Shown here piece by piece: positions 1,268-27,162 of a DNA stretch of 30,165 bases (position 1 is its first letter; each line of letters starts with the position of its first letter). Under the pieces are notes generated by a model. The model did no database searches and was not told the origin of the DNA. It saw nothing but the letters and a program-made list of their open reading frames with translations. The position numbers and the translations under genes were made by a program. Source of the stretch: a virus; IMG/VR virus record IMGVR_UViG_3300035191_000049. One strand, written 5' to 3'.

Positions 1268-1268
1268 G

Positions 1269-3418: not shown

Positions 3419-3420
3419 CG

Positions 3421-4982: not shown

Positions 4983-4984
4983 CC

Positions 4985-6485: not shown

Positions 6486-6495
6486 CGGCGGCAAT

Positions 6496-6541
6496 ATAGC
6501 ACATGCAATATCCTCTGGACAAGGTAGGTTGCATATGTTAC
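6496..6541 (+). promoter_or_regulatory. divergent regulatory region: partial palindrome ATAGCACATGCAAT (6496-6509), TGGACA (6516-6521), palindrome GTTGCATATGTTAC (6528-6541)
   Basis: Lies between the leftward MTase start (6485) and the rightward gene 6573. Same architecture as the other four sites. Confidence 0.55.
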
Positions 6542-6572
6542 CCCTAGGATATGTGCGAGCGAAAGGACCATC

Positions 6573-7334
6573 GTGATGTCCAAGGAAAAAGAGCGATGCC
6601 CCGAGTGCAGAATGTTGGGCCAGCACAAGCTTCAGTGCAGTCGTCGTGAGGACGGAGGGCAGGTGCGCCTGCCTATGAAGATGGTCAAGCGCGCTGTGCC
6701 TCATCCAGAGCACCCCTCGGGAAAGGACCACTTCTCCGTCCAGGTGCTCTCTGACCCATGGTGTTGGGTCGTTGTCCGCTTCAAGCTCGAAACGATGCAC
6801 GAGGACATGGGGACGCTCATCACCATGCTCGGGGCCGACTACGGATCGAAAAGCCCCAAGATGCTCCGGGACGATCTGTTCCGAATGGAGTTCCCCTTCA
6901 GCGATGGAAATACTCACGCTGGCATGTTCGCGCTCGAAGCGTGGCAGGCGCTCAGCCGCAACATGTGGTGCGGCGATCTCGACGAAGAGCTTTCCTTCTT
7001 CAGGACCCATCGAACTATCTGGGAGCTGGGCCACGAGCTGACCTACCACGAGGAGCTGAAGATTCTCCGTTTCCTGCGCGATAACCCCGAGAAGCAGTGG
7101 GGGAAGAAGGGGGCTGTCCTCATCGAGCTTCAGGACACGCTGGGCATTGGCGGCGGCGCCATCCTCACGCTCATCGAGCCGAGCGGCGGCTTCGAGGATT
7201 ACCAGTACGTCGTCACCATCGGCGGCTTCCGCTCCGGCAACCCCTTTACCATCGACCTGCCAGCCGTCGAAGCGCGGATCGCCCTGATGGAGGAACAGGG
7301 GCCTCCAGACCCCTGGGAGGAGTCGGCAGATTGA
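6573..7334 (+). CDS. hypothetical protein with N-terminal CPEC-x9-C zinc-finger-like motif (253 aa)
   Basis: GTG 6573 / ATG 6576. GC3-rich long ORF. Lies downstream of the divergent palindrome region. Confidence 0.6.
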   Translation: MMSKEKERCPECRMLGQHKLQCSRREDGGQVRLPMKMVKRAVPHPEHPSGKDHFSVQVLSDPWCWVVVRFKLETMHEDMGTLITMLGADYGSKSPKMLRDDLFRMEFPFSDGNTHAGMFALEAWQALSRNMWCGDLDEELSFFRTHRTIWELGHELTYHEELKILRFLRDNPEKQWGKKGAVLIELQDTLGIGGGAILTLIEPSGGFEDYQYVVTIGGFRSGNPFTIDLPAVEARIALMEEQGPPDPWEESAD

Positions 7335-7732
7335 TTTGGTTTGTTTCACTCGACGAGGGTCGTTTTCACATCTACTGCAAAGACGGCCGCAAGAACGACG
7401 GCAAGTGGTTCGATCCTGATGATATCGAAGGGATGAAGGCGTTCTGTAAGAAGATGGAGATCGATCACGTCTGCGGCCTCTCATCGGTTGACTTTCCTGA
7501 GGAGAATGGGCTCGACGAGGACTTCAATGCCAATGAGGTCATCGGCAAGGTGCTATGGTCAGGTCCCGCTCTCCTTCACCTCCAGGAAGGTCTCGTGTCC
7601 CTGTACCGCGCCTATCACTCGGGCCAGCTCACCGAGGACGAAGCCAACAGGCTGGAGAAGGCTGGCGACGAGATCAAAGCTATCTACGATGAGGCCGAGC
7701 CTCGTCTCAACCCCGGTGGTAACCCCGAGTGA
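7331..7732 (+). CDS. hypothetical protein (~133 aa)
   Basis: TTG 7331 overlaps the stop of the upstream gene (TTGA). The ORF-track start 7097 lies in another frame inside gene 6573-7334, so it is rejected. The start codon is uncertain. Confidence 0.4.
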   Translation: MIWFVSLDEGRFHIYCKDGRKNDGKWFDPDDIEGMKAFCKKMEIDHVCGLSSVDFPEENGLDEDFNANEVIGKVLWSGPALLHLQEGLVSLYRAYHSGQLTEDEANRLEKAGDEIKAIYDEAEPRLNPGGNPE

Positions 7733-12503: not shown

Positions 12504-13001
12504 ATGACGACGGAAAAAGAAAAGAACAGCGACATCGCGATGCCTGAAAGAATCTTTCAGCGCACCGTCTCCATCTTGACAAACGAACGCATCACAACCG
12601 TTACGTCGTCCTCTGACCAGGGGGGATCGTCCGGAGGATACTTCGGTGGCTCCATGCTCTTTACCAATCCCCAGATCGTCAAGAACGCACATGACGCCGT
12701 CTCCTACCTTCGGACATACCTGACAGGAGACCTCTCCGCGCTTCCTGAGACTCGCTCTATCGATCGCGACGAGATGATCGGCGAGAAAGAGACGGCGCGG
12801 GGAGTATCGATACGCACCGGGAGAAACGGCTACATCGTCGAGCCCCACTTCAACAACGGACATGGCTGGATCAAGTCGATAGGAGACGAGGTCGTCTTCA
12901 CCGATCTGACCGATATGCTCAAGTTCTGTATGGACCACCTCGAAGGCAAGCCAGGAACCGCCTGGTGGGACTGGGAGGGCGAGAAGATATGGACAAAGTA
13001 A
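12504..13001 (+). CDS. hypothetical protein (165 aa)
   Basis: GC3-rich ORF. G/S-rich linker SSDQGGSSGGYFGGS. Confidence 0.6.
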   Translation: MTTEKEKNSDIAMPERIFQRTVSILTNERITTVTSSSDQGGSSGGYFGGSMLFTNPQIVKNAHDAVSYLRTYLTGDLSALPETRSIDRDEMIGEKETARGVSIRTGRNGYIVEPHFNNGHGWIKSIGDEVVFTDLTDMLKFCMDHLEGKPGTAWWDWEGEKIWTK

Positions 13002-13615
13002 AAGTCGGCGTAGCAGCCATCATCGAGCGCGACGGCAAGATCCTCATGGGCCAGAGGAAAAACTCACACGGGGCCGGCCGCTGGTCCTTTCCAGGTGGAC
13101 ACATCGAGCCCGGTGAGACGCCAGAGCAGGCCTGCGAGCGCGAGGCAATGGAGGAGACGGGACTGCGGTTGCTCAACATTCGCCGTGGCCCATGGACCAA
13201 CGATATCTTTCTTGCAGAGAAGAAGCACTACATCACCCTGTTCCTCTTTGCCGATGCAGAAGGCACGCCTGCGCTTCGAGAACCTGATAAGTGCGCAAAA
13301 TGGCTCTGGGTTGAAAAGGACAACATTCCATTTCCCCAGTTTCTCCCCGTTTTCAATCTGATGAAGGAACACCCTGACATCCTTGGAAAGCAGCCGGATG
13401 GTGTCTCCGACGACGCAGGTGTCCCCGTTGAGATCCAAAGGGGGCTCCAGTCCAATGCCGATAAGCTCGATGCGATGGGCGGGACCTGTCCGGAGTGCCA
13501 GATCACCGCGGACATGTTCCGATACCTTCCCGTCGCCAACTACTTCAACCTCGGCACCAGATGCACGGGGACATGCAAGACATGCGGCATAGGCCCATGG
13601 GAGGAAATACTGTGA
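12989..13615 (+). CDS. NUDIX hydrolase with C-terminal Cys4 zinc-ribbon-like extension
   Basis: Perfect Nudix box GGHIEPGETPEQACEREAMEETGL (G-x5-E-x7-REUxEExGU). C-terminus has CPEC...CTGTCKTC. Start ATG 12989; GTG 12965 is also possible. Confidence 0.8.
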   Translation: MDKVKVGVAAIIERDGKILMGQRKNSHGAGRWSFPGGHIEPGETPEQACEREAMEETGLRLLNIRRGPWTNDIFLAEKKHYITLFLFADAEGTPALREPDKCAKWLWVEKDNIPFPQFLPVFNLMKEHPDILGKQPDGVSDDAGVPVEIQRGLQSNADKLDAMGGTCPECQITADMFRYLPVANYFNLGTRCTGTCKTCGIGPWEEIL

Positions 13616-14906: not shown

Positions 14907-15194
14907 ATGTCGCTCGGCGAAGCAAAGATGGCAGCGCTCTGCGCGCTCAAAAACTGTGGCGAACAGGATGGTCGATTTCAGACCTATGGACACCTCGCTG
15001 GCTGGGTCGTTGACGAGTTCGATTACAAGGATCGACTTGTGTCCGAATTTCTCAACTGGTGTGTATGGCGCAAGATTACGAAGCCCACACGGTTCGACCG
15101 TCCTGACGATGGAAAACGTGTGAGCGGTTACGAGATCGATTTTCAGCAGATCGAACGAGCGCTCGAATTTCTGGAGGCGAAAGCACATGCCTAA
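14907..15194 (+). CDS. hypothetical protein (95 aa)
   Basis: G-rich SD then ATG 14907. GC3 bias. Confidence 0.55.
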   Translation: MSLGEAKMAALCALKNCGEQDGRFQTYGHLAGWVVDEFDYKDRLVSEFLNWCVWRKITKPTRFDRPDDGKRVSGYEIDFQQIERALEFLEAKAHA

Positions 15195-17724
15195 GATCGT
15201 TGGAGTCAGAGAGAGCTGCTGCTGGCGCCCCATTTTCGACACATGGTTCGATGGGGGCTGCGTCATCCCCGAGCATTTTCGCGATGCGGCCAAGGCGCTC
15301 ACAGAGCACGAGGGGAACTCCGACTACGAATGCACCAGCGACGACTGGTTCAAATACCTGCGCTTCTATATCGACGGGCCGAACGACAACATGGCCAAGG
15401 ACACCGAAGAGTTTATCGTCTGGTGTCAACACGTCGGCATCTTTACCGTCAGGGTCGAAGCTATGAAGCCGGCCGTCTTGGAGCTGAACAAAAAGCAACT
15501 CGACTCGATGATCTACGACCAGAATGTGCTTGTCGTCCTGCACCACTTCAGGGATCGCGCCAAGAAAAAATACTGTGGGATGGGGTTTCCGACGGCGAGA
15601 GACATCGCTAGAGAGTACGACTTTGACGCGGACTTCGTCTACTCGGTCATCGTCTGGATGAAGTGCGAAAGCACCTTCAAGCTGAACGGCCAAATTAGAC
15701 CCGACGCTGTCGACAAGCTCATCAGTGACATCGTCAACCGCAATAGATTCCAGAAGCATGAGGAGGAGCCGATGCCTCAAACCGTACAAGAAGAGCTAAC
15801 CAAGCTCCGCCAAGAACAGCTCAGTGCCTTGTGGTGGGTCGCCACCGAGACCAGCAGCGAAGAGACACCGACCTACGCAAAGCCAATGACCCTGAGGCAG
15901 CTCCATAAGCGCCTGCTCCTTACCCGAGCGTTCAAGGGTTCTTCAGATCGAAAGCTCAACGCTTTTATCAACTGGGCGTCGGCTTGCAATAACTTCATCT
16001 ACAAGACGGATGACGAGCTGTACCACATCAACCTCATTTATATCGCACAACACTTCAAGGACAAGGCTCGCTGGTTCGTTCAGCCCTTCTTCCCAAATGC
16101 GCTCATAGGACTCCGATGGATCGCCGAGAAGAACAACTGCGACGAGTTCGACCGCGAGATCGAGTGGTATCACCTGCGCTGCGGTCCATACTTTTCGAAC
16201 CTCGAACAAACGAAGGTCTTTTGTCTCTGGTGCCAGTGGGAAGGCATCCTGCGCCAGAAGACGCCGGGTGTCGTCGCCTTCGTCTATAACGAAGAGCAGC
16301 TCAACCGAGCGCTGGGCGAGTACATGGACGAGCAGAAGCTCAAAGAGGCGACAGAGTGGGATCCCACCGCCTCTGGCGAGCGCTTCCCCGGCGAGGAGAA
16401 AGCTCTTCAGTGGATGGTCGACAACTACGGGGGGTCCTGGATGTTCATCTCGGGCATCACCCAGGGCATCTTCGAGAAGAAGCGCGTACAGGTTCAGAGC
16501 GAAGAGCTTGAGTGGTTGCGCCAGTTCATGACCCGGCGACCTGCCGACCATCCAGAGGGCATGAAAAAGGGCATCGAGTACTTCGGCATCGACTACCAGG
16601 CGGCTGAGAACCGTCTCTATGAGATAGCGGAAACGAGGCAGAAGATGGGCTACAAGCATGAAGACTTCAAAGGTGAGAAGCGTGTCCTTCAGTACCTGCT
16701 CCGAGTACAGGGTAGCTGGCAGGGAGCGGACGCCGACGTGGCCATTCAAAAGGCCATCAAAGGAACGGCTGAGGCGAACGGAATCGACGTAGATCTTTTC
16801 AAGCAGTACAGCCTCGAATTCCCGTGGCTGAACGTCGGTACAGAGAAGACGCGTAAAGAGGACCACATGGGTAACCTCACCCGGAAGAAAGTCAGCGTCG
16901 CGACGGTCGACAAAGATACAATCCGCGAACGTCTCGCTCTCCTCGGTTTTATCGACATCGACGCCGAAATGAAGCCCGAGGTGCAGCTCCGTGCTCTCAT
17001 GATGACGCTGAAGCACGAGAGCGGAAGCAAGACCTGGGAAGACCTCATCAACTGCCCCTGGGACTGTCACATCCAAGCAGCAGGCGGCTACAAGTCCATG
17101 TGGCGCAAGATCGCCCAAGACATGAAGCAGCGGGGCATCATCAAGGTGGTCAGGGAAGCCGGCAAGAAGGGTGACCGGCACAAGGTGGACACTGCTCTGC
17201 TCAAGAATCGAATGGAAGAGCTGCAGCGGGTGATCGAGATGAAGGGCGGTCGGTGCTCAGAGGTTCTGGTTCTGAAGGACCAAGAGTGCGACGACTGCAA
17301 CACCGTGTTCAACCCGAGCGATCCCGGCGTCGAGAGCCAAACATCAGGAGACGGCGACATCTGCCCATCCTGCGAGCAGACTCGCATCGCGGTCGAGATC
17401 GCCGAGCACCGAACGTGGCTCGCGAGCACCTTCAAGACCTCGATGGGTTCTGGACCGCCGCCCGGGGAAGTCGCGGCCTCCATCATATACGGCCATGCGA
17501 CCGCACTCGCTGGCTCCGAGCACATCGCGTGGCTCCAGGAACAGATCCGCAACGCGAAGAAGCTCACTAACGAGCCGACGCGTTACATGCAGTGGATGAA
17601 GGCGTCTGAGCTGCTGAGTCGCGTCGAGTCGCGCGTCAAGGGCGTCAAGGTCACAGAAGACGGACTTCTCCTCTCGAACTACCAACAGGCACGGCTGCGT
17701 CTGGAAGAGATGACAGAGGAGTAG
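15187..17724 (+). CDS. large hypothetical protein (845 aa)
   Basis: Long ORF with consistent GC3 bias. Start overlaps the upstream gene by 8 nt. No catalytic motif I recognise. Several CxxC pairs near the C-terminus (CDDC, CPSC). Confidence 0.7.
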   Translation: MPKIVGVRESCCWRPIFDTWFDGGCVIPEHFRDAAKALTEHEGNSDYECTSDDWFKYLRFYIDGPNDNMAKDTEEFIVWCQHVGIFTVRVEAMKPAVLELNKKQLDSMIYDQNVLVVLHHFRDRAKKKYCGMGFPTARDIAREYDFDADFVYSVIVWMKCESTFKLNGQIRPDAVDKLISDIVNRNRFQKHEEEPMPQTVQEELTKLRQEQLSALWWVATETSSEETPTYAKPMTLRQLHKRLLLTRAFKGSSDRKLNAFINWASACNNFIYKTDDELYHINLIYIAQHFKDKARWFVQPFFPNALIGLRWIAEKNNCDEFDREIEWYHLRCGPYFSNLEQTKVFCLWCQWEGILRQKTPGVVAFVYNEEQLNRALGEYMDEQKLKEATEWDPTASGERFPGEEKALQWMVDNYGGSWMFISGITQGIFEKKRVQVQSEELEWLRQFMTRRPADHPEGMKKGIEYFGIDYQAAENRLYEIAETRQKMGYKHEDFKGEKRVLQYLLRVQGSWQGADADVAIQKAIKGTAEANGIDVDLFKQYSLEFPWLNVGTEKTRKEDHMGNLTRKKVSVATVDKDTIRERLALLGFIDIDAEMKPEVQLRALMMTLKHESGSKTWEDLINCPWDCHIQAAGGYKSMWRKIAQDMKQRGIIKVVREAGKKGDRHKVDTALLKNRMEELQRVIEMKGGRCSEVLVLKDQECDDCNTVFNPSDPGVESQTSGDGDICPSCEQTRIAVEIAEHRTWLASTFKTSMGSGPPPGEVAASIIYGHATALAGSEHIAWLQEQIRNAKKLTNEPTRYMQWMKASELLSRVESRVKGVKVTEDGLLLSNYQQARLRLEEMTEE

Positions 17725-18857: not shown

Positions 18858-19346
18858 ATGATCACACTGCTGAAAAAGACGGCGCAGTACGCCAAGTACA
18901 TCGCCAAGCACAAATGGTTCGTCTTCGTCGAGTGCGCGAAGATGGGGCTCATTCGCCGAGGGCTTGTCCACGACGCCTCGAAGTTCCTGCCCGATGAGTG
19001 GATTCCATATCAAGACTTCTTCTACGGCAAGAAGAACGATGAGGGATACTTCCACCAGCCGGGTACCGAGGAGGCGTTCGACGAGGCATGGCTCCGTCAC
19101 ATCCACCGCAACCCTCACCACTGGCAGTATTGGTTGCTCCAGCAAGACGACGGGCCGGTTAAGACGCTCAAGATGCCCAGAGAGTTTCTTCTTGAGATGA
19201 TCGCCGATTGGCGAGGCGCCGGCAAAGCCCAGGGCTTCGCTACGATCAATGCCTGGTACGCCAAGCAGCGTGAAAAGATTGTTTTGCACCCAGAATCGCG
19301 GCGCGAGCTGGAGCAGATCCTTCGCGACGCTGGAGAATTGGAATAA
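18858..19346 (+). CDS. conserved-looking phage protein with HD-like motifs (162 aa)
   Basis: Start at internal ATG 18858 (MITLLKK). Motifs GLVHDASKF and HIHRNPHHWQYW. The ORF-track 18702 extension is R-rich. Confidence 0.55.
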   Translation: MITLLKKTAQYAKYIAKHKWFVFVECAKMGLIRRGLVHDASKFLPDEWIPYQDFFYGKKNDEGYFHQPGTEEAFDEAWLRHIHRNPHHWQYWLLQQDDGPVKTLKMPREFLLEMIADWRGAGKAQGFATINAWYAKQREKIVLHPESRRELEQILRDAGELE

Positions 19347-19975
19347 TGACTTTCAGAACGTGGAAAGACCTTCAGGTCGACGTCCCGGAAGGCACCGTCG
19401 GAAAATGGACGGTCGATAGGTGGACACCGGATCCGAACGACATCCACTTCCAGCTCCAGAACATGCGGGACCCCGCTCGTCAAATCCTGCCCGGCTACAC
19501 CTACACTCGCCTGCTTCGGGGCGACAACCCCATCATGACCGACACGCCGGCTGAGCTTAACGACCTGTGGGCTATCCTGAAAAAGGTTCGAGATTCACAA
19601 GAGCCCTCGGTGCTCATCCATGGGCTCGGGCTCGGCTGCGTCCTGAACGGCTGCTTCATCTACGGAGCAAGCAACGTCACCGTTGTCGAGAAGGAAGAGG
19701 ACGTCATCGCGCTCGTCGGCCAGCACTGGCAGGAGCGCTACGCAGACCGCTTGGAGATCATCCACGGCGATGCGTTTACCTGGAAGCCGCCCAAGGGCGC
19801 TCACTGGGACCTTGTCTACCACGACATCTGGGACGATCTGTGCACAGACAACCTGAAGGAGATGTCGAAGCTCCACAGGCGCTTTGGCCGGCGATGCGAA
19901 GAACAGCTCTCATGGTGCCGGGATCTCCTCGAATCCCAGCGGCGACGAAACCGAAGGCGACCGAGCTATTTCTAG
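19346..19975 (+). CDS. class I SAM-binding Rossmann-fold enzyme (methyltransferase / spermidine-synthase-like)
   Basis: Motif I SVLIHGLGLGCVL, acidic beta-2 VTVVEKEED, IIHGDAF and DLVYHDIWDD. This order matches the spermidine synthase / SAM-MTase fold. TAATG overlap with the upstream gene. Confidence 0.55.
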   Translation: MTFRTWKDLQVDVPEGTVGKWTVDRWTPDPNDIHFQLQNMRDPARQILPGYTYTRLLRGDNPIMTDTPAELNDLWAILKKVRDSQEPSVLIHGLGLGCVLNGCFIYGASNVTVVEKEEDVIALVGQHWQERYADRLEIIHGDAFTWKPPKGAHWDLVYHDIWDDLCTDNLKEMSKLHRRFGRRCEEQLSWCRDLLESQRRRNRRRPSYF

Positions 19976-19984: not shown

Positions 19985-20623
19985 ATGTTCACAGAGCGAA
20001 AGAACCACGAGCTAACCCTGCGCAGCTCACACGTCGTCGACGGCGCCCTCGGCGAGTACGGCCACACCGAAATCACCCGCGCCGATAACGAGATGCGGAT
20101 CGTTTGCGGCTCGGACGACAACCCGCACATGTTCGAGAACTTCAGCTCCGACCGCTACGCAATAGTCAACGGGCTGCGGATCATCATCAAGCTCTGGAAC
20201 CCAGAGCAAATACTCACGCTCGTCCGCGGACTCACCGTCGCGCTCTATACCTCAAGGGAACCAAACCCTCTCCGGGCCACTTGGAAGAAAGCGAACCGGC
20301 AGATCTACTTCCCAGGAGGCATTATCCTCGACAAGCGCATGGGGCGGTGGGAGATCGGTGACCACGGAGAGCGAATCTGCAACCTGTGGACGATGGACCC
20401 TGCCGTTATCGACAACGAGACAAGAGTTTGGATCGTGATGACGCTCGACAACGCGGCGCTCGAAGTCTTCCATTCAATTGAGCGCGTTACAAGTCCCGTC
20501 AATCGGTTTGCATCTGTCGAGGTCAAACTGCTCGGTGATGTCATCGAGGAGAAACAGGTTTCGGAGCCCCGGTCTTTGCCCTCAGACCCCGCAGACGACT
20601 CCATGAAAAAACAGGAAGGCTAG
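19985..20623 (+). CDS. hypothetical protein (212 aa)
   Basis: AGGAGG SD upstream. GC3 bias. Confidence 0.6.
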   Translation: MFTERKNHELTLRSSHVVDGALGEYGHTEITRADNEMRIVCGSDDNPHMFENFSSDRYAIVNGLRIIIKLWNPEQILTLVRGLTVALYTSREPNPLRATWKKANRQIYFPGGIILDKRMGRWEIGDHGERICNLWTMDPAVIDNETRVWIVMTLDNAALEVFHSIERVTSPVNRFASVEVKLLGDVIEEKQVSEPRSLPSDPADDSMKKQEG

Positions 20624-20626
20624 CCG

Positions 20627-20713
20627 ATGATACGAAAAGAACTTGAATCATCACACAGCTTCATTCAGGAGATCATGGAGTACTTACGCGGGCAGAAGGA
20701 GAAGGGGGCATGA
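20627..20713 (+). CDS. possible 28-aa micro-ORF (MIRKELESSHSFIQEIMEYLRGQKEKGA)
   Basis: AGGAAGG SD 7 nt upstream. Its stop overlaps the next ATG (ATGA). The 5' half is unusually AT-rich for this genome, so it may be non-coding leader. Confidence 0.25.
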   Translation: MIRKELESSHSFIQEIMEYLRGQKEKGA

Positions 20714-21288
20714 GGAGCATCACCGAAATCAACGGAGAGCGTCATTACAAAGAAGAGCATCCTCCGAACATCAAGCGCATCATCGAGCTACCCTGGGTCG
20801 GCGTCGCCGAGATCGGCATCCGCACCATTCGCCTGCAGAAGCGCTTCGAACGCGTCCTCTTCCCAGACAATCTCCCCGAGATGCTCGAAAGCCAAAGCGT
20901 GCGCTTCAACCAGCTTGAAGGGACCCCATACACCGTCGCTGAGGATTCGCTCCGCATTCACCAGCTCGTCCCCTACCTCATCAGCTCGAAGCACCTAGGA
21001 CTCACTACCCACGTCAAGTTCACGGTCATCATCGGCGACACCTACAGGATGCCCGTCATGCTCGGCCAGGTTGACCAGGGGTGCGGAGGCACCGCGGTTC
21101 ACATGGGTCAGCCGGTCCCGGTTCCTCCGAGACAGCCGCTCGTCGTCGACATCGACTTCGACTGCCGTACCAACTTCGTCCTGGCCAATGCTCTCGGTGA
21201 GATGCTCAAGGATACGAATGCGCGCTTCGCGCTCGGTCTCAGGCTGGTCGGCTTCCAGAGGACGGAGATTCGCCGGGACGAGTGGTAG
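20710..21288 (+). CDS. hypothetical protein (192 aa)
   Basis: Strong SD AAGGAGAAGGGGG. The stop abuts the stop of the convergent gene at 21289. Confidence 0.6.
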   Translation: MRSITEINGERHYKEEHPPNIKRIIELPWVGVAEIGIRTIRLQKRFERVLFPDNLPEMLESQSVRFNQLEGTPYTVAEDSLRIHQLVPYLISSKHLGLTTHVKFTVIIGDTYRMPVMLGQVDQGCGGTAVHMGQPVPVPPRQPLVVDIDFDCRTNFVLANALGEMLKDTNARFALGLRLVGFQRTEIRRDEW

Positions 21289-21876
21289 TCAGCGGACGAT
21301 CCAGGTTGCCAGCGCCAACGGCTGCCAGTTATCGGCGTTCCAGGACTCCAAATTCAGGTCGTGATCCTCGACGGCCTTTTCTATATCCGCTGGCCCCACC
21401 TCTCCCGGCCAGTCATGCACGCTCACGACGCTCCCCGGGGCCATCAGCGGAACGAACGTGTAGAACTCCCATTTCTTAGAGCCGTTGTCACAGTAGAGGT
21501 AGGCCGGTTCGGTTCCCAGTGCCTCGATCACCTGAGGCTTGCCAATGTCAGAAAAAATGTCAGTCCAGTGCGTCTGTATCCCGAGCGCATCGTAGATGGG
21601 CTTCGCCCCGTCGTCGATGTTGTGCTCCTTGTTAAAGGGAAAAGAATCCTGGTCGAAGGTGTGCATCGGAATGCCGAGCCTCACGGCCCACAGACCGAGA
21701 TAGATCGACATTGCACCCATAGACGTTCCAAGCTCGACGATCGACCGAATCTGCCTGTTCTCGTGCAAGAGCACACTGAGCTGATGGTAAAGCGCGAAGG
21801 CGTGCTGAGCGCGCTGTCCCGCAAAGAGTTTTTCGTAGCCAAAGGTCGTTACTGAATCCGTCAACGCTGCCTCCAT
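21289..21876 (-). CDS. class I SAM-dependent methyltransferase, TylF/CmcI-like (195 aa)
   Basis: Motif I IVELGTSMGAMSIYLG follows the IvE.G...G.S pattern of TylF/CmcI O-MTase-like enzymes. GC3-rich on the minus strand. The divergent region upstream carries palindrome site 4. Confidence 0.6.
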   Translation of the reverse strand: MEAALTDSVTTFGYEKLFAGQRAQHAFALYHQLSVLLHENRQIRSIVELGTSMGAMSIYLGLWAVRLGIPMHTFDQDSFPFNKEHNIDDGAKPIYDALGIQTHWTDIFSDIGKPQVIEALGTEPAYLYCDNGSKKWEFYTFVPLMAPGSVVSVHDWPGEVGPADIEKAVEDHDLNLESWNADNWQPLALATWIVR

Positions 21877-21882
21877 TTTCCC

Positions 21883-21908
21883 TGGACACCCAAGGTAGCA
21901 TATGTTAC
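21883..21908 (+). promoter_or_regulatory. divergent promoter/operator-like site 4: CATTTTCCC-TGGACA-CCCAAG-GTAGCATATGTTAC; TACTTT sits 17 nt after TGGACA
   Basis: Lies between the leftward gene start 21876 and the rightward gene 21954. Confidence 0.55.
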
Positions 21909-21953
21909 TTTACGGGCGCAACCGAAAGCAATTGTTTATCACTAGGGGCCTAC

Positions 21954-22649
21954 ATGACCACTGAAAACGCTCTGAAAAAGTACAAGGAACAACTGGAGGC
22001 GCTCGCTCTCGACGCCTACAAGGATCACCGAATAAAACGAGAAGGCGACCGCCGCTGGCTCATCCAGCGAAAAACAGCCAAGGGCTGGGAAGGCTTTCAC
22101 TGGACCGAGATCATCATCGTTACCGGTGGCATCTTGGTCCACGGCGACGGCGATACCTGCCTCTTCAAGGTCTACCACCCGCCGAAGGGAGAGGACGACC
22201 CCATCGCTGCCGCGCGCTGGATCGCCAAAGCCCCAGACCAATACGCCCAGGAGAAGTGCAACATCGGCATGGACACGAGTGGCGTAGCCGGCGTCAACAA
22301 CACCTTCGACGACGAGGTCGCGATCTGGGAGCTGCAAGAGCGAGTCAAGGAACGCACCAGCGAGATCACAGACGAGGCAGGCAACATCGCGGAAGCTCTG
22401 AAAGAGGACAAGGAGCTTGCTGCGTGGCGCAACGCTCTCGAAGCCATGCAGCAGGGGTGGGAAGACTGGTACTTCGTCAAGAACACGCTGTACGACGACC
22501 TCTGTGAAGCTGACGTTGGTGACGAGAGCGAGCTAATCTCCGACATCGGCATCGTGCCGGCTCCGCGCCTCTACTACGCCAGGGCCGCTCTCCGAAAATT
22601 CGTTGAGCTGTACGACGCAAGAAAGGCGGCGACCAGTGACGCCGCATGA
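21954..22649 (+). CDS. hypothetical protein (231 aa)
   Basis: First rightward gene after divergent site 4. GC3 bias. Confidence 0.6.
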   Translation: MTTENALKKYKEQLEALALDAYKDHRIKREGDRRWLIQRKTAKGWEGFHWTEIIIVTGGILVHGDGDTCLFKVYHPPKGEDDPIAAARWIAKAPDQYAQEKCNIGMDTSGVAGVNNTFDDEVAIWELQERVKERTSEITDEAGNIAEALKEDKELAAWRNALEAMQQGWEDWYFVKNTLYDDLCEADVGDESELISDIGIVPAPRLYYARAALRKFVELYDARKAATSDAA

Positions 22650-22947
22650 ACTTGCTTGCCTCATCGAACAGAAGGCCGTGTCCGCCGCGGTAGAGACGTT
22701 CTATAAGGAGCTGCTCAAGGAAATGGCGGAGGTGGGGCTCAATCCCTTCATCCTGGCTGAGACCGTTCACAGCCACACGGCTTCGATGATCGTCGAAAAT
22801 CTCGAACCTGCCATGCCGATGACCTTTACCGTCGACTTCGGCCCCATCGTCTCCAAGACGGAGCTGCTCAAGGCCATCGAGGAGTCCGATCCGGAAGATG
22901 GCTGGAGGGGAACTATCATCGGCGACAAGGTTATCGGAGAAAGCTGA
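22636..22947 (+). CDS. hypothetical protein (~103 aa)
   Basis: GTG 22636 is preferred because its overlap is short. TTG 22603 (the ORF-track start) is also possible. Confidence 0.45.
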   Translation: MTPHELACLIEQKAVSAAVETFYKELLKEMAEVGLNPFILAETVHSHTASMIVENLEPAMPMTFTVDFGPIVSKTELLKAIEESDPEDGWRGTIIGDKVIGES

Positions 22948-22960
22948 AGGGGGGAGAAAC

Positions 22961-23440
22961 ATGCCAGTTGAGTACGTCAAGAGGGATCTCGTCAAGAACC
23001 CAAAGCAGGGTGAGCACGAGCAGATCATCATCGCCCACATTTGCAACGACATCGGCGGCTGGGGCGCCGGGTTCACCGGCGCGCTTTCGGGCCGGTGGCT
23101 GCATCCGGAGATGTTCTACCGGCGCTGGCGACGGGGTGTTGAGTCTCGCGACATCCCCTTTGAGCTGGGGCAGACGCAGTTCGTCAACATATCGGCGACG
23201 ATCACTGTCGCAAACATGATCGCACAGCACGGCGTCGGCCGAGGAAAACGCCGTATTCGATACCGAGCACTCGCCGAGTGCTTGGATAAGGTTTGCGAGC
23301 ACGCGAAAAGCCTCGGGGCGTCGGTTCACATGCCCCGGATAGGCTGCGGACTCGCTGGCGGCACATGGGACGAAATCGAGCCCATCATCAACACCACCTT
23401 AGTAGGCAAGGGCGTCCGCACCGTTGTCTACGACCTGTAG
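22961..23440 (+). CDS. macro domain protein, TARG1/DarG-macro-like (putative ADP-ribose glycohydrolase), 159 aa
   Basis: VEYVKRDLV...IAHICNDIGGWGAGF...HMPRIGCGLAGGTWDEI...TVVYDL aligns with human TARG1 (ITYVKGDLF...LAHCISEDCRMGAGIA...SMPRIGCGLDRLQWENV...ITVYTL), recalled from memory. AGGGGGGAG SD. Confidence 0.75.
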   Translation: MPVEYVKRDLVKNPKQGEHEQIIIAHICNDIGGWGAGFTGALSGRWLHPEMFYRRWRRGVESRDIPFELGQTQFVNISATITVANMIAQHGVGRGKRRIRYRALAECLDKVCEHAKSLGASVHMPRIGCGLAGGTWDEIEPIINTTLVGKGVRTVVYDL

Positions 23441-23449
23441 GAGGAGAAC

Positions 23450-23737
23450 GTGAGCAATCTCAAAGCCGACATTATCCAGTCAGGCGTTGAAATCGAGAGG
23501 ACCGCTCCTGGCGAGTTCCTGATCATTCACCAGAAACAGCGTCGAATGGGAATCAAGTTCTTACCGACCGGCCAATGGCAGATCACTACGCCCAATGAAA
23601 AGACGCTCATCGGTGACGCGCTCAAGATGATGACGATCCTGAAGGGGCATTGCGGGCTGGATACAGCGATTGCTCCAGTCCTAGCGACGGTGATCGACCT
23701 GGAAATGCAGGCTCGTAAAGACTCCGAGTTCGTCTAA
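23450..23737 (+). CDS. hypothetical protein (95 aa)
   Basis: GTG start after AGGAGAA SD. Confidence 0.5.
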   Translation: MSNLKADIIQSGVEIERTAPGEFLIIHQKQRRMGIKFLPTGQWQITTPNEKTLIGDALKMMTILKGHCGLDTAIAPVLATVIDLEMQARKDSEFV

Positions 23738-23964
23738 TGGCCGCAATCGCCCCACCAGGAGGACGGCCACACCTACTCGAAGCGATGAAGCTCGCAGGGC
23801 TTCTTCGGGAACAGAGCAAGACACTCAACTGGAAAGAGATGCAGCTTCTCGCCGTCAAGAACGACATCCGTCACCTTCAGCGTGCTTTGTTTTCCGCCAT
23901 CGAGGTCGGTATGATCGACGTCCAGTTCAGCGCACCCGACAGGAGCACCGATGGGGAAGGGTAA
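23737..23964 (+). CDS. hypothetical protein (75 aa)
   Basis: TAATG overlap. GC3 bias. Confidence 0.45.
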   Translation: MAAIAPPGGRPHLLEAMKLAGLLREQSKTLNWKEMQLLAVKNDIRHLQRALFSAIEVGMIDVQFSAPDRSTDGEG

Positions 23965-24487
23965 AAGGGGACGAGTCACTCACAGGGTACCGTCTCGTCG
24001 AAAAAAGAAATCGGCAGAGAAGCCCTCGATTCAAATCAAGCGGATTCAGCGGGTCATCCAGGCGACGGTTCCGGATGACATGAGCTTGAAACAGCTCGCC
24101 GAGCTGTACCGCTACGAGGGTATGCACCTCGGAATGAAGATCGCCGTCGGACTCCCAGACGGGCTCGTCGACCAGGTCTCGCTGGGAGAAATGCCGACCA
24201 GGGTCGAGACCATCAAACTCTGCCGAATGATCGGTGAGGGGCTCAGGGCAGCGCTCCGGAAGACGTTGGCTCACCTGGAGACGCTCCAGGCTGATATTGA
24301 AAACGCCGCTGGTTACGTTCCGGCTGGTGACGAAGAAAACATCGTTCCGGACGACTTCGTCCGTCTCATTACGCTGCCCGAAGACGAGGGCGGCGGCACC
24401 TGCGCCGAGTTGGATCCCGCGCGTCGCTGCATCGGGTCGACTCCAGCAGAAGCCCTAAGAGCCCTTGCCGATGTCCTCGAAAGCTAG
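23951..24487 (+). CDS. hypothetical protein with basic N-terminus (178 aa)
   Basis: N-terminus GKGKRGRVTHRVPSRRKKKS. GC3 bias. Confidence 0.55.
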   Translation: MGKGKRGRVTHRVPSRRKKKSAEKPSIQIKRIQRVIQATVPDDMSLKQLAELYRYEGMHLGMKIAVGLPDGLVDQVSLGEMPTRVETIKLCRMIGEGLRAALRKTLAHLETLQADIENAAGYVPAGDEENIVPDDFVRLITLPEDEGGGTCAELDPARRCIGSTPAEALRALADVLES

Positions 24488-24719
24488 TGAGAAAATCCTC
24501 GCCGCCCACAGAGCGAGCTACGGTCGCGACATGATCCGCAACCTCCGCATCGAGGGCCGGTGCTTTACTTGCCTGATGCGCGAAGAGCTGTACCCGGCCA
24601 CTCACCCTGAGAGCGGATCAAGAATCTATCTGTGTGAGTACTGCAAGCTCGATCAGGAGCTGAAGGAGGCGTTCGAGCAGAGTATTTTCAGCCCTCGATC
24701 TGCCCTGTCAGCTTCTTGA
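24465..24719 (+). CDS. small zinc-ribbon protein (84 aa)
   Basis: CFTC-x20-CEYC. ATG 24471 is an alternative start. The 3' end overlaps the convergent gene 24688-24999 by 32 nt. Confidence 0.5.
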   Translation: MPMSSKASEKILAAHRASYGRDMIRNLRIEGRCFTCLMREELYPATHPESGSRIYLCEYCKLDQELKEAFEQSIFSPRSALSAS

Positions 24720-24999
24720 ACGTCTCGGCGTGCCGATCGAAGGTTCTCTGAGCCATTGCCATAGAGTAGGCACTCTCAACCAACCCCTTCGACACCTCGA
24801 CACCTTCAGCGTTGTAGAACCCCATCTGGCTCAGCTCTTCGCTCGTCGTCTCGAAGACGCACATGCGGCCGTCCCAGAAATAGATGACCAGATGGACACC
24901 ATGCGTCTTGGCGATGATGCGGTCGATGGTGACTTTCATGCCGTGAGATAGATGGAGATCGCTCGGTGTGATGTCCTGCTTGACGTGGGTTGCTTTCAT
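24688..24999 (-). CDS. paralog family member 6: stand-alone copy of the shared module (103 aa)
   Basis: HLVIYFWDGRMCVFETTSEELSQMGFYNAEG aligns with DDDGDLLIFEYDASEDETLAEMGYEPTE of member 1. GC3-rich on the minus strand. Its start lies 26 nt from palindrome site 5. Confidence 0.6.
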   Translation of the reverse strand: MKATHVKQDITPSDLHLSHGMKVTIDRIIAKTHGVHLVIYFWDGRMCVFETTSEELSQMGFYNAEGVEVSKGLVESAYSMAMAQRTFDRHAETFKKLTGQIEG

Positions 25000-25024
25000 T
25001 TTTTCCGGAGCCCCCTTTTATGAT

Positions 25025-25054
25025 GTTGCATATGCTACCTTTCTTCCATATAAT
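25025..25054 (+). promoter_or_regulatory. site 5: palindrome GTTGCATATGCTAC (25025-25038) embedded in a sigma70-like promoter TTGCAT (25026-25031) - 17 nt - TATAAT (25049-25054)
   Basis: Near-consensus -10 with exact 17-nt spacing. T-tracts upstream. Lies between the leftward gene start 24999 and the rightward gene 25199. Confidence 0.6.
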
Positions 25055-25198
25055 GGCTCAGGTGTCAATGTGGATGGCAGGGAGTGCACAGGACGGGACG
25101 AGCATATCGTCTTTTGGATCGATGGACTAATCTCCGATCCATTCGACAGGTATGGCCTCTGCTCGTCTTCTCTGCCATCGAGGGAATATGTAACGACC

Positions 25199-26998
25199 AT
25201 GGGTCGCCAAGACGGGATATTCGGCGACGACGATGACGACGGCGTCTTCGGCCCTCAGTCCGACGACGTAGGCGCATCGCGTGACGCCACCTGGCAGCGC
25301 CTGGAAACCTCACCAGAGGTCCCAAGGACGCGTGACTCCGTCTATCTGCGCCACTGGGACAACGACCTTTCCGTGAAGCAGCCAACTGACCTGTCGCTAC
25401 TCGACCGAGACCTCGCCTCCCAAAGAAGCGCGCCGCGAGTGGCTCAAAAGTCGTCTTTCCGACCTGGAGGACCGCCAAAGATCGTGACTATTGGTGACAT
25501 GCTGAAGGCTCACAGGGACTTCACTGGGATACAGGTCAAGCGATGTCAGCCCCAGACATGGAAGGGCCAGCAGGTTGCTGGGTTTCTTGCGACCTATGAC
25601 CACCCCATCGACGCTGACTTCATCAAGAAGCACCACGGCGGCGGCGTGTACGACGTCACCGTTCGAGGGCCTTCACCGAAAGGTACAGGCCGAAACGTTT
25701 TTCTCGACAGCATGCGGGTCAAGATTTCCGGAGATCCGCTACTCCTCACCGACGCAAAAAAGGAGGAGGACGAAAATAAGATGCCCTTCTCGCGAAAGAT
25801 TTCAAGAGTCGAATTTCTCGAAGGTCTGCACCGCTTCCTTTCGACAGCAGAACTGGAAGATCACAACGACGCGAGACGTCCATTCTTTACCAAGCAACAG
25901 CTTCTGCGACACTTCATCGATATCGACAACACCATCTCCAGCATCTCGCTCGAAAATCGGTGGCAGGAGTATATTCAGGGCTTCCAATGGAGCGTTGGCG
26001 TATCAACATGGAGAACCAATGAAGCGGTTCTCAATAATGACGTCGATAGGACGCTCTGGGAAATAACTAACCAGCTCGCCCAGGCAAAGAACCTCGACGA
26101 GCAGGAAGCGCAGGGCCTCATTGCAGAGCCAGAGACGCAGCTCGTCTCGACACCGACGGACCCAGTGCTTCTTCAAGCCATTGAGAGCGTGGCAAGCGAG
26201 CTGCGCATGACCCGAGAGCAGATGCCCTATCAGCCAGACCAGTGGCAGCTCGCCCAAAGGAGAATGGAGGACGAGCAGCGCGCCCGAGAGCTTCTCGAAG
26301 CGATAAATAATGTCGGCGGAAACATTAGCCAATTGAACAGCCAAATGGGTGATATCTACCACGGGCTCGACGCGCTGGTGCAGTACCAGCTCGAAGCTCA
26401 AAGAATGAAAGAGTTGGCAGCGCGTGAGGCTGCCACGAATCCAGAGAGGATGACCATGGCAGAGAGAATCAAGAACGCAGCGCTCGAAACCGGCACCGGC
26501 GTCGTCAGCGCCTTCCAGGAGGGGCTCAAGATATCGGGCTCACAACGCCTGAGCAAGAAAGTGGTCAGCGTCTTCCACAGCAAGCTCGGTCAACACATCC
26601 CAGGCGCTGAGACAGCGGTGGGTCAGAAGGTCGAGCAACTCATGATCCCAGCGCTCGTCCACTTTATGTCGAGCGCCTTCTCCGACAAGGTGCCAAAGGC
26701 AGACCTCGTGCAGCGCACCTGCCTCCGAGCCATCACCGGTGAAGCCAAGGACTCAGGCGACGAGCTGCTCGACCTGTTCCTCCCGGTCTTCGGTGAGATC
26801 GCATCGATGGATTCGATGACTGACCTCGCCTCGCAGTTCGCGCAGGAGGACACCCCGGAGATGGCGGAAAAGTCCAGCGCCCAGTCGCTCAGCGAGTCCA
26901 TCGCGGGACAACTCGATGGTCTTCAGGACGGAGACAAGGTCGAGATCACCGTCAAGCGATCCAGCGACCAGAAGGTTGCGGCCGAGGCCGACGAGTAA
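25199..26998 (+). CDS. hypothetical protein (599 aa): poly-Asp N-terminus, long Q/E-rich helical region
   Basis: The ORF-track start 24968 overlaps the reverse gene and the promoter. GC3 bias is strong only from ATG 25199 onward. GTG 25070 is an alternative start. Confidence 0.55.
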   Translation: MGRQDGIFGDDDDDGVFGPQSDDVGASRDATWQRLETSPEVPRTRDSVYLRHWDNDLSVKQPTDLSLLDRDLASQRSAPRVAQKSSFRPGGPPKIVTIGDMLKAHRDFTGIQVKRCQPQTWKGQQVAGFLATYDHPIDADFIKKHHGGGVYDVTVRGPSPKGTGRNVFLDSMRVKISGDPLLLTDAKKEEDENKMPFSRKISRVEFLEGLHRFLSTAELEDHNDARRPFFTKQQLLRHFIDIDNTISSISLENRWQEYIQGFQWSVGVSTWRTNEAVLNNDVDRTLWEITNQLAQAKNLDEQEAQGLIAEPETQLVSTPTDPVLLQAIESVASELRMTREQMPYQPDQWQLAQRRMEDEQRARELLEAINNVGGNISQLNSQMGDIYHGLDALVQYQLEAQRMKELAAREAATNPERMTMAERIKNAALETGTGVVSAFQEGLKISGSQRLSKKVVSVFHSKLGQHIPGAETAVGQKVEQLMIPALVHFMSSAFSDKVPKADLVQRTCLRAITGEAKDSGDELLDLFLPVFGEIASMDSMTDLASQFAQEDTPEMAEKSSAQSLSESIAGQLDGLQDGDKVEITVKRSSDQKVAAEADE

Positions 26999-27162
26999 GA
27001 GCGTCTAGTCAGGGGTTCTTCATGGGAAAGGCGGAACCTGCTGGGATATGCCCGTGGTTCGAACACGGCACGGGGCACTGCATGCACCCGGCGCCACAAT
27101 TCGGCCACTGTGCACTACCACTTTTTCCAGAACAATGCCCTGTTAGCCCCCAAGAGAGGCGA

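Follow-up and report, generated by a model that had tools for sequence, protein, structure and literature searches.

A stand-alone SCO6735/BT1257-type macrodomain in a probably viral genome as a candidate eraser of DarT-type ADP-ribosylation

The window, the whole stretch of 30,165 nucleotides analysed here (IMG/VR record IMGVR_UViG_3300035191_000049), contains a small gene which an initial annotation described as a phage-encoded TARG1/DarG-like macrodomain that could reverse ADP-ribosylation of the DarT type. This raises the questions of which macrodomain lineage the product belongs to, whether its active site is compatible with such a reaction and whether the carrier is a phage. The gene and its surroundings comprise the following features.

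22961-23440, plus strand: macrodomain gene of the SCO6735/BT1257 type, ALC1-like class, 159 amino acids plus stop
22949-22956, plus strand: Shine-Dalgarno-like sequence GGGGGGAG, read from the sequence, with a 4-nt spacer to the ATG at 22961
21954-24719, plus strand: seven tightly packed co-directional small genes, including the macrodomain gene (gene calls)
21954-22649 and 22636-22947, plus strand: genes of this block upstream of the macrodomain gene (gene calls)
23450-23737, 23737-23964, 23951-24487 and 24471-24719, plus strand: genes of the block downstream of the macrodomain gene (gene calls)
21289-21876 and 24688-24999, minus strand: genes bounding the block (gene calls)

The translation of the open reading frame 22961-23440 (plus strand) does contain all four blocks quoted by the initial annotation, namely EYVKRDLV (residues 4-11), IAHICNDIGGWGAGF (residues 24-38), HMPRIGCGLAGGTWDEI (residues 123-139) and VVYDL (residues 155-159, the C-terminal end of the protein). 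The start at 22961 is favoured over the in-frame ATG at 22898 because it is preceded by GGGGGGAG; the stop of the upstream gene, at 22947, lies ahead of the ATG at 22961, and the alternative ATG would produce a 50-nt overlap with that gene. On six metagenome contigs, genes called independently give the same 159-aa product. The GC3 of the gene (0.73) is similar to that of the neighbouring genes, and the protein is basic, its pI of 9.2 placing it among the most basic 11% of family members. The copy is stand-alone, as had been supposed, the 159 residues comprising the macrodomain only. This is a real macrodomain enzyme gene, with a similarity far above chance, and its enzymatic activity is predicted.

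As was found by the phmmer search against the PDB, the closest relatives of known structure are SCO6735 (5e3b, E 1.3e-41, residues 22-158) and BT1257 (2fg1, E 1.2e-38). The ALC1 macrodomain is matched at E 2e-9, and the direct match to TARG1 is weak (E 2.6e-3) and covers the C-terminal third only. The databases contain more than 5,000 homologues of the protein, which matches PHROG 335 with E 1.1e-24; the Pfam Macro match is weak (20.3 bits; gathering score, 22) and limited to the C-terminal part. The AlphaFold2 model (pLDDT 86, pTM 0.85) has the three-layer alpha/beta/alpha macro fold, and the top 25 Foldseek matches are macrodomains throughout with a probability of 1.00, led by 2fg1 (TM 0.83) and 5e3b (TM 0.78/0.84) and followed by ALC1, Poa1p, TARG1 and DarG. 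An hhalign comparison of the family profile gave a probability of 97% with TARG1 and 89% with the Thermus aquaticus DarG macrodomain, and SCO6735, BT1257, ALC1, TARG1 and DarG all outrank the viral nsP3 macrodomains and the MacroD-type YmdB. The 159-aa protein is thus a macrodomain of the ALC1-like class, not of the MacroD, PARG or macroH2A classes, and belongs to its SCO6735/BT1257 subgroup.

Assignment to TARG1 proper was rejected, with E about 3e-3 and the K84/D125 dyad not retained. Assignment to DarG was rejected as well: the protein scored 19 bits on the NCBIfam DarG equivalog, which has its cut-off at 250, and 20 bits on the PADLOC DarG model, over the C-terminal part only, and Gln replaces the catalytic Lys. 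The TARG1 blocks quoted in the initial annotation proved accurate when checked against PDB 2lgr, and its subfamily placement stands at the level of the ALC1-like class, as revealed by hhalign and Foldseek, but the nearest proteins are SCO6735 and BT1257.

The functional sites were located as follows.

22979-22981, plus strand: Lys7, the lysine of the YVK block, earlier called catalytic; K in only 45 of 120 homologues
22985-22987, plus strand: Asp9, aligned with D20 of TARG1; D in 117 of 120 homologues
23036-23074, plus strand: loop 1, H26-I27-C28-N29-D-I-G-G-W-G-A36-G-F (5e3b alignment and census)
23225-23227, plus strand: Gln89 (CAG), equivalent to SCO6735 Gln85, at the position of TARG1 Lys84 and DarG Lys80
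23234-23260, plus strand: mobile basic loop V92-G-R-G-K-R-R-I-R100 (alignment and census)
23333-23362, plus strand: loop 2, P125-R-I-G-C-G-L-A132-G-G134, diphosphate-binding (alignment and census)

The residue census covered 120 database homologues, 29 viral loci and 80 bacterial loci (229 sequences for Q89); the 5e3b alignment was read with an offset of 20 between the chain and the SCO6735 numbering, and the TARG1 sequence used for alignment was identical to that of PDB 2lgr. The ADP-ribose-binding features of a macrodomain are present and conserved in the family, including GGWGAGF (residues 32-38), PRIGCGLAGG (residues 125-134), which is the same in SCO6735 and BT1257, and D9, presumably the Asp by which macrodomains usually contact adenine. 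H26 and N29 occur without exception in the 120, 29 and 80 homologues.

The lysine of the YVKxDL block, which the initial annotation regarded as catalytic and on whose conservation it made its proposal depend, is replaced by Ser in P0001, a variant 91% identical, and the true catalytic position is occupied by Q89. This glutamine is kept by all the database homologues (120/120), viral loci (29/29) and bacterial loci (80/80), and T4 Tk.4 also has Q there. Its SCO6735 equivalent, Gln85, is the structural counterpart of TARG1 Lys84 and is essential, the Q85A mutant being inactive (PMC9411070). In TARG1 the residues K84 (LITKK) and D125 (GCGLD) are catalytic (PMC9411070); the site of D125 is occupied by A132, which is Ala in 119 of the 120 homologues. 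The replacement of K84/D125 by Q89/A132 means that the TARG1 Schiff-base mechanism cannot apply, and the lysine-based TARG1/DarG mechanism envisaged earlier fails. The functional idea survives, since SCO6735, with the same Gln active site, hydrolyses thymine-ADPr.

I27 aligns with V25 of SCO6735, the backbone of which has been proposed to hold the catalytic water (PMC9411070). The lysines K34 and K89 of SCO6735 position DNA, and their double mutant is dead on DNA; in the 159-aa protein they are replaced by A36 and G93. These positions vary within the family (position 36 is K in 66 and A in 46 of the 120 homologues), and therefore K34/K89 do not define the subfamily. Instead, the nearby basic loop supplies R94, K96, R97 and R98. 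In most relatives this loop has two more residues; here RR takes the place of the family PP, position 98 being P in 116 of 120 homologues. The SCO6735 counterpart of the loop was proposed to be a DNA clamp (PMC9411070), and by analogy the loop V92-R100 may have a DNA-clamping role.

We lean, with modest confidence, towards a stand-alone ADP-ribosylglycohydrolase of the SCO6735/BT1257 type that acts as an orphan antitoxin and undoes DarT2-type thymine-ADPr. This reading presupposes that the protein shares the substrate of its homologues and that the carrier is a phage which meets DarT2. A host DarT2-type toxin would place ADP-ribose on thymine of single-stranded DNA during infection, and the macrodomain would strip it off, so that replication and packaging could continue. 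The chemistry would follow the lysine-independent mechanism proposed for SCO6735: the GGWGAGF and PRIGCGLAGG loops and Asp9 would bind the ADP-ribose, Gln89 would place the diphosphate and the water network, a backbone-held water beside I27 would lead to protonation of the thymine keto group, and the basic loop GRGKRRIR may aid the grip on DNA. SCO6735, the one protein of the subgroup for which this activity has been demonstrated, reverses DarT thymine-ADPr on single-stranded DNA in vitro, in E. coli and in S. coelicolor, and rescues cells from DarT, although it possesses neither K84/D125 of TARG1 nor K80 of DarG (PMC9411070). In T4, knockout of tk.4 sensitised the phage to DarTG2 (preprint, bioRxiv 10.1101/2025.11.20.689424). 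Reversal of DarT-type ADP-ribosylation, as suggested initially, is the best-supported candidate function. The precedents of SCO6735 and Tk.4 make this guess reasonable, but already known in kind.

The gene lies among accessory genes in a compact setting of co-directional small ORFan genes with Shine-Dalgarno sites, DNA methyltransferases and a NUDIX gene, and near it are a few families confined to phages, phrog_20637 and phrog_15480 among them. The PHROG and Pfam scans, which covered 50 window ORFs, nine upstream ORFs and a downstream ORF of more than 1,000 aa, recovered two or three methyltransferases, the MutT-like NUDIX protein, DUF4026_C, DUF5662/phrog_20637 and phrog_3806. No Pfam match above the cut-off and no PHROG match was found for the six neighbours in the block and the two flanking minus-strand genes, the sole trace being a weak Methyltransf_24 match of the gene 21289-21876. 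Promoter- and terminator-like sites in the block were no more frequent than expected by chance, and the tRNA search found none.

Capsid, terminase, portal and tail genes were not found in the window and its flanks (10 kb upstream, L037, and 3 kb downstream, L001; about 23 kb of flanking sequence read). Megablast of window positions 20000-27000 against GenBank phages, the IMG/VR exact-pattern scan with the macrodomain gene DNA, the IMG/VR scan with the 845-aa neighbour protein and tblastn of the latter against phages gave no match; PDB sequence searches with the two largest proteins gave nothing useful, and a homologue walk over a 143-kb contig (P0134) and a 41-kb contig (P0130) did not find hallmark genes. 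Homologues of the macrodomain occur in 626 phage records and 29 IMG/VR contigs. The best relative in representative bacterial genomes is at most 58% identical, so none of these genomes carries this gene itself. The carrier is probably the genome of an uncultured virus, a large phage; the support is circumstantial, since no hallmark phage gene was found. The phage origin assumed by the initial annotation is plausible, with no hallmark virus gene in the sequence read.

A partner ADP-ribosyltransferase was not detected by Pfam in the 50 window ORFs, and when the full set of window proteins was compared by tblastn with 31 other loci bearing the macro gene (those of T4, of Streptomyces phage Francob and 29 viral loci from IMG/VR), no conserved neighbour of the macrodomain gene was found, so a fixed operon partner is rejected. 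The gene labelled "ADP-ribosyltransferase" in Francob proved to be the macro gene under a wrong name. An ADP-ribose disposal pair of the NUDIX and macrodomain proteins was rejected: the NUDIX protein is MutT-like, its gene is 10 kb away, and the two co-occur (10-kb flank) in only 2 of the 29 viral loci.

The same enzyme may have another substrate. SCO6735 also cleaves the Glu-linked ADPr of PARP1 E988Q (PMC9411070) and the uracil-ADPr of single-stranded RNA (PMC13036486), so that thymine in DNA is not the sole candidate. The protein could then remove Glu/Asp-linked ADPr from proteins or uracil-ADPr from RNA, thereby countering another ADP-ribosyltransferase defence or toxin, or resetting the marks of the carrier's own transferase. 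T4-like phages bearing homologues also encode the transferases Alt, ModA and ModB (PMC8120803), and non-DarT defences of this kind, such as CmdTAC, exist. However, none of the 50 scanned window ORFs has a transferase-like Pfam domain, the only known in-vivo phenotype of a phage homologue is directed against DarTG2, SCO6735 is inactive on 2'-OH RNA ADPr, and the adenine-ADPr produced by CmdT has so far been described as irreversible. We consider such a substrate rather unlikely. Still less probable is an enzyme for small molecules, either an O-acetyl-ADP-ribose deacetylase or an ADP-ribose-1''-phosphate phosphatase, that tidies NAD-derived metabolites and repairs no macromolecule. Annotations point that way, PHROG 335 and T4 Tk.4 being labelled "phosphatase", with "Appr-1-p processing" labels also in use and "O-acetyl-ADP-ribose deacetylase" as the JGI label of homologues, but these names are inherited domain labels rather than test results. 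Among the fold neighbours is the ADPR-1''-phosphatase Poa1p (TM 0.70), yet it is only about 20% identical and ranks after SCO6735, BT1257 and ALC1; moreover, the characterised close relative works on DNA, RNA and protein, and the basic surface and loop suit a nucleic-acid substrate. This alternative seems very improbable.

The remaining alternative concerns the carrier rather than the chemistry. The homologues, more than 5,000 in number, are mostly found on bacterial chromosomes, and SCO6735 is induced by DNA damage (PMC8120803), so the gene could be an ordinary SCO6735-family copy of a cell or another mobile element, protecting the cell from DNA ADP-ribosylation or damage rather than serving counter-defence; the missing hallmark gene and the unmatched IMG/VR scans agree with this. 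Nevertheless, the contig, of at least 113 kb, is unlike a bacterial chromosome: nearly all of it is made up of ORFans, which form tight arrays of co-directional genes and include paralogue families, and its few recognisable genes belong to phage families. In addition, a relative above 58% identity is absent among 185,579 representative genomes, and the identical gene block is present in at least six metagenome samples. A non-viral window therefore appears quite improbable.

The idea of a phage macrodomain acting against DarT has already been published. Protection of T4 from DarTG2 by Tk.4 was reported in a 2025 preprint (bioRxiv 10.1101/2025.11.20.689424), the AdfM of PhiKZ, gp104, a phage-borne orphan antitoxin with a DarG-like macrodomain, was published in 2026 (PMC13309987), and SCO6735 is the biochemical precedent. 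The 159-aa gene opens no new question and adds one rather divergent example to the phage "orphan antitoxin" erasers of DarT ADP-ribose marks. The name AdfM covers two macrodomain lineages, one DarG-like with Lys (PhiKZ gp104) and one SCO6735/BT1257-like with Gln (T4 Tk.4 and the 159-aa protein), and an annotation rule of the type "catalytic lysine present" would wrongly discard the latter. It is conceivable, though unlikely, that phage SCO6735-type macrodomains form a second, mechanistically distinct lineage of orphan ADP-ribosylation erasers, Gln-based, Lys-independent and with a remodelled Arg-rich clamp loop, whose origin from chromosomal genes of bacteria was separate from that of the DarG-derived AdfM. 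The 159-aa copy might then have broader or different substrates than DarG (for example, RNA uracil-ADPr or protein Glu-ADPr), and it might also block the toxin by binding it, as reported for the catalytically dead Q85A form of SCO6735. In that case, ADP-ribosylating defences beyond DarT2 would be neutralised, in an unstudied host clade. The gene could also be a functional handle on the biology of a very poorly known large element.

Among the known systems, human TARG1/OARD1 (4j5q, 2lgr) has the same class and fold (Foldseek TM about 0.69, about 21% identity) and has in common with the 159-aa protein its YVKxD start and two loops, AH...MGAG and PRIGCGL. It also removes thymine-ADPr, and its K84/D125 dyad corresponds to Q89/A132. 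PhiKZ gp104 and DarG (5m31, 5m3i) belong to the same broad ALC1-like class and remove the thymine-ADPr made by DarT2. They retain the FPTK catalytic lysine (K80 in the TK motif of DarG), whereas the 159-aa protein has Gln; BLASTP found no alignment with gp104 at E <= 100, and the PADLOC DarG model gives gp104 133 bits compared to 20 bits. DarG has a DarT-binding domain at its C-terminal end and is encoded next to darT; the 159-aa protein has no such domain and its gene no such neighbour.

SCO6735 of Streptomyces coelicolor (5e3b) and BT1257 of Bacteroides thetaiotaomicron (2fg1/2afc) are in the same subfamily, with 43-47% identity in the structure alignment and TM about 0.8, and they are likewise stand-alone proteins of about 160 aa. 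Their active site is shared, with the His, the Asn, an invariant Gln where the catalytic Lys would be and the PRIGCGLAGG loop, whose Ala replaces the TARG1 Asp. The differences are A36 and G93 instead of SCO6735 K34 and K89, and the mobile loop GRGKRR, two residues shorter, instead of the family PP. Both are bacterial chromosomal genes, while the 159-aa gene lies in an ORFan-rich, probably viral genome. The SCO6735-type family is mostly chromosomal in bacteria and has no adjacent DarT there.

T4 Tk.4, which the HIDEN-SEQ preprint (bioRxiv 10.1101/2025.11.20.689424) calls AdfM, is also a stand-alone, phage-encoded macrodomain. It belongs to PHROG 335 as well (E 1.3e-65, compared to 1.1e-24 for the 159-aa protein), its closest PDB relative is likewise BT1257, and BLASTP aligns the two proteins with E 3e-13 and only 29% identity, their Gln residues falling at the same position. 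Tk.4 is acidic (pI 5.9), in contrast to the basic 159-aa protein (pI 9.2), and its loop motifs, MGSGVAG and PRIGAGIGKG, are divergent. Unlike the 159-aa protein, Tk.4 has a known phage and a known host, and the genetic evidence of the preprint is that T4 needs it to grow on a DarTG2 host.

The stretch at 22961-23440 (+) encodes a macrodomain protein of 159 residues, MPVEYVKRDLVKNPKQGEHEQIIIAHICNDIGGWGAGFTGALSGRWLHPEMFYRRWRRGVESRDIPFELGQTQFVNISATITVANMIAQHGVGRGKRRIRYRALAECLDKVCEHAKSLGASVHMPRIGCGLAGGTWDEIEPIINTTLVGKGVRTVVYDL (translation), in which all four sequence blocks quoted in the initial annotation are found. The ATG at 22961 is preceded by GGGGGGAG at 22949-22956, and the stop of the upstream gene is at 22947. 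An alternative in-frame ATG at 22898 would create a 50-nt overlap with the upstream gene and is unsupported by homologues; the gene calls made independently on metagenome contigs give 159 aa every time and also argue against it. The GC3 of the macro gene (0.73) is similar to that of the plus-strand genes around it.

[quoted passage not shown] The Pfam Macro model gave a weak match to the C-terminus only (20.3 bits; gathering score 22). As was found by the phmmer search against PDB sequences, the nearest relatives are SCO6735 of Streptomyces coelicolor (5e3b, E 1.3e-41) and BT1257 of Bacteroides (2fg1/2afc, E 1.2e-38), followed by the human ALC1/CHD1L macrodomain (E 2e-9), and human TARG1/OARD1 was matched just at E 2.6e-3 over residues 95-158. 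The AlphaFold2 model (mean pLDDT 86, pTM 0.85, 58 homologues as input) was most similar to BT1257 in a Foldseek search of the PDB (TM 0.83), then to SCO6735 (TM 0.78/0.84), ALC1, Poa1p, TARG1 (~0.69) and DarG (~0.64-0.67), with viral nsP3 macrodomains and MacroD-type YmdB ranking behind all of these. The hhalign comparison of the family profile with TARG1 (97% probability, E 4e-11) and with the Thermus aquaticus DarG macrodomain (89% probability, E 2e-6) upholds the class proposed in the initial annotation. The TARG1/DarG subfamily named there does not stand: the protein scored 19 bits with the NCBIfam DarG equivalog, far under the cut-off of 250, and 20 bits, over the C-terminal third only, with the PADLOC DarG model.

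The catalytic residues of TARG1 are Lys84 and Asp125, and that of DarG is Lys80; SCO6735 possesses none of them and has Gln85 at the structural position of the lysine, where the Q85A substitution abolishes activity (PMC9411070). Residues were mapped through the phmmer alignment, applying an offset of 20 between the 5e3b chain and SCO6735 numbering.

Residues of SCO6735 and their counterparts in the window protein
SCO6735 H24: window protein H26
SCO6735 V25: window protein I27
SCO6735 N27: window protein N29
SCO6735 K34: window protein A36
SCO6735 Q85: window protein Q89
SCO6735 K89: window protein G93

In a MAFFT alignment of 120 database homologues with SCO6735, BT1257, the phage T4 homologue Tk.4 and TARG1 (exact match to PDB 2lgr; K84 within LITKK, D125 within GCGLD), Q89 is aligned with TARG1 K84 and A132 with D125. 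The hhalign alignment leaves a gap around the Gln; the pairing of Q89 with K84 follows from the unambiguous match of Q89 to SCO6735 Q85 and the published structural superposition. H26, N29 and Q89 are invariant in all 120 homologues, all 29 IMG/VR loci and all 80 bacterial genome loci. The lysine of the YVKxDL block (K7), thought earlier to be catalytic, is a lysine in just 45 of the 120 homologues and is replaced by Ser in P0001, a database variant 91% identical to the window protein; the TARG1 catalytic pair is K84/D125. Since lysine is variable at K7 and absent from the Q89 site in every alignment made, a conserved catalytic lysine is lacking, and this refutes the TARG1/DarG mechanism presumed earlier, Q89 and A132 standing where TARG1 has K84 and D125, but not hydrolytic function. 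The window protein is very probably an active ADP-ribosylglycohydrolase of the SCO6735 type.

SCO6735 removes the thymine-linked ADP-ribose that DarT places on ssDNA, more quickly than DarG or TARG1, relieves DarT toxicity in E. coli and S. coelicolor, and acts in addition on PARP1 E988Q, from which it takes off Glu-linked ADP-ribose; DarT is still inhibited by its catalytically dead mutant (PMC9411070). Uracil-linked ADP-ribose on ssRNA is a further substrate (PMC13036486), and 2'-OH ADP-ribosylation of RNA is not reversed by SCO6735 (PMC11833690). The proposed mechanism includes a water on the Val25 backbone and a network organised by Gln85, with Lys34 and Lys89 positioning the DNA. Unlike SCO6735, the window protein has Ala and Gly in place of these two lysines. 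Position 36 is naturally variable, being K in 66 and A in 46 of the 120 database homologues, while viral copies have mainly R, A or S. The adjacent mobile loop stands out: its sequence is GRGKRRIR, it is two residues shorter than in most relatives, and 116 of 120 relatives carry a proline at position 98. The protein is basic (pI 9.2, the top 11% of the family); its charge and loop would be compatible with a nucleic-acid substrate.

An identical macro protein is present on nine metagenome contigs. The window matches at 99.99% two loci, L037 (10 kb upstream) and L001 (reaching past the 3' end), and the recorded length of its own contig is 112,965 bp. The following features were identified across the window besides the macro gene:

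5739-7484, minus strand: 581-aa ORF with an N6/N4 DNA methyltransferase domain in its C-terminal part (residues 368-560) only
12989-13615, plus strand: MutT-like NUDIX hydrolase (Pfam NUDIX E 3e-25)
18858-19346, plus strand: DUF5662/phrog_20637 protein with relatives in phages, directly before the phrog_15480 gene
19346-19975, plus strand: methyltransferase, phrog_15480
21289-21876, minus strand: gene bounding the macro block, weak Methyltransf_24 match
24688-24999, minus strand: gene bounding the macro block
within the window: DUF4026_C gene

The gene layout is phage-like: compact, nearly all on one strand, SD-led and with more than 90% ORFans. At least 12 consecutive paralogous genes (240-560 aa), all in one direction, form an array over window 1-5791 and L037 1-10000, which fits a large phage, as does the finding of no relative above 58% identity among representative genomes of 185,579 species. 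A similar layout is seen in a 143.6-kb contig (ENA ERZ27256796 k141_1130832) that is distantly related. On the other side, no capsid, terminase, portal or tail gene was found in the ~43 kb examined, and neither a megablast of window 20000-27000 against GenBank phages nor scans of IMG/VR with the DNA of the macro gene and with the 845-aa protein at 15187-17724 gave a match. Viral origin is rated as likely.

In the array, an N-terminal segment of ~50-60 residues is kept at 35-50% identity, the C-termini are divergent, and one neighbouring pair is 46% identical over the full length; Pfam and PHROGs gave zero matches. These genes may belong to a diversified family built on one shared anchor domain, e.g. 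a set of receptor-binding proteins. The window begins inside one gene: ORF 17-1267 covers only the last 416 residues of a 561-aa product (L037 8314-9999). Just 3' of the window, L001 17357-20480 encodes a protein of >1,050 aa in which no domain could be recognised. Its 38%-identical homologue (locus L040) lies on the 143.6-kb contig, which also holds NUDIX, OMP decarboxylase and Methyltransf_24 genes and at least seven ankyrin-repeat paralogues in tandem; the homologue and these paralogues suggest that large uncharacterised elements in which gene families have expanded form a wider group.

The 581-aa ORF is probably an over-call, because metagenome gene calls split the region into a 248-aa methyltransferase (~5739-6485, minus strand) and a separate plus-strand gene (6573-7334, ~252 aa, GC3 0.80), and the domain is C-terminal only. 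Up to three methyltransferases (at 5739, 19346-19975 and the weak 21289-21876, just upstream of the macro block) are seen in 30 kb. The DUF5662 protein shares 46% identity with one from Moorella phage MTATph1. The top NCBIfam matches of the NUDIX protein are of the MutT type, not ADP-ribose pyrophosphatases; in two of 29 other viral loci the macro gene has a NUDIX gene at a distance of up to 10 kb, probably by coincidence. An 845-aa ORFan (15187-17724, +) has many Cys/Trp/His motifs, e.g. FCLWCQWE and INCPWDCH, and a marginal PHD-finger-like match (residues 700-744, E 6e-3); it had no Pfam, PHROG or NCBIfam match and no phage or IMG/VR relatives.

The block at 21954-24719 consists of seven closely spaced genes in one direction, of which the macro gene is the third; the other six gave zero Pfam and PHROG matches. 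The last gene of the block (24471-24719, +) and 24688-24999 (-) are convergent, with 3' ends overlapping by 32 nt, and a search for a terminator-like site between the two was negative. No ADP-ribosyltransferase or DarT-like domain was detected in the 50 window ORFs scanned, and other viral contigs bearing the macro gene have no neighbours in common with the window. The macro gene therefore behaves like an accessory gene that stands by itself, as the initial annotation had it.

Homologues were found by tblastn in 626 GenBank phage records (identity ≤52%), foremost in Streptomyces phages of ~125-130 kb, e.g. Wakanda and Annadreamy, and further in hundreds of T4-like phages, then in Vibrio, Acinetobacter, Erwinia and jumbo phages. 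The macrodomain homologue of Streptomyces phage Francob, gene 167 (L036 3998-4486), is labelled 'ADP-ribosyltransferase' in GenBank, which denotes the reverse activity; in further records of Streptomyces phages the homologue is named 'hypothetical protein', 'hydrolase' or 'phosphatase'. In T4-like phages the homologue adjoins the vs gene, the T4 copy being tk.4, labelled 'phosphatase; A1pp motif'. The window protein shares 29% identity with T4 Tk.4 (BLASTP, E 3e-13, Gln aligned), both belong to PHROG 335, and the closest PDB relative of Tk.4 is BT1257.

A HIDEN-SEQ preprint reports that tk.4 alone among the T4 genes is required on a DarTG2 host; its clean knockout makes T4 sensitive to DarTG2, and the gene was named adfM (bioRxiv 10.1101/2025.11.20.689424). 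By analogy with this published work, the function proposed in the initial annotation is sound: experiments on a homologue now provide a precedent for it, and the idea itself is not new any more. We put the chance that the window protein serves in counter-defence by reversing DarT2-type ADP-ribosylation of DNA at about even or slightly better. Overall, the class, the stand-alone nature and the plausible function given there hold, the subfamily, catalytic residue and mechanism do not, and the phage context is a probable one.

PhiKZ gp104, likewise named AdfM, strips DarT2 marks from DNA and is required on DarTG2 hosts (PMC13309987), and DarTG1 is countered likewise by the NADAR-type AdfN (PMC11825919). 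gp104 is a true DarG-like macrodomain (PDB 5m3i, 9e-25; PADLOC DarG, 133 bits), and BLASTP detects no similarity between it and the window protein; it has the FPTK lysine, whereas the window protein has Gln at the catalytic-lysine site. The name 'AdfM' spans two distinct macrodomain lineages, and a test for the catalytic lysine would miss the Gln-type lineage of T4 Tk.4 and the window protein.
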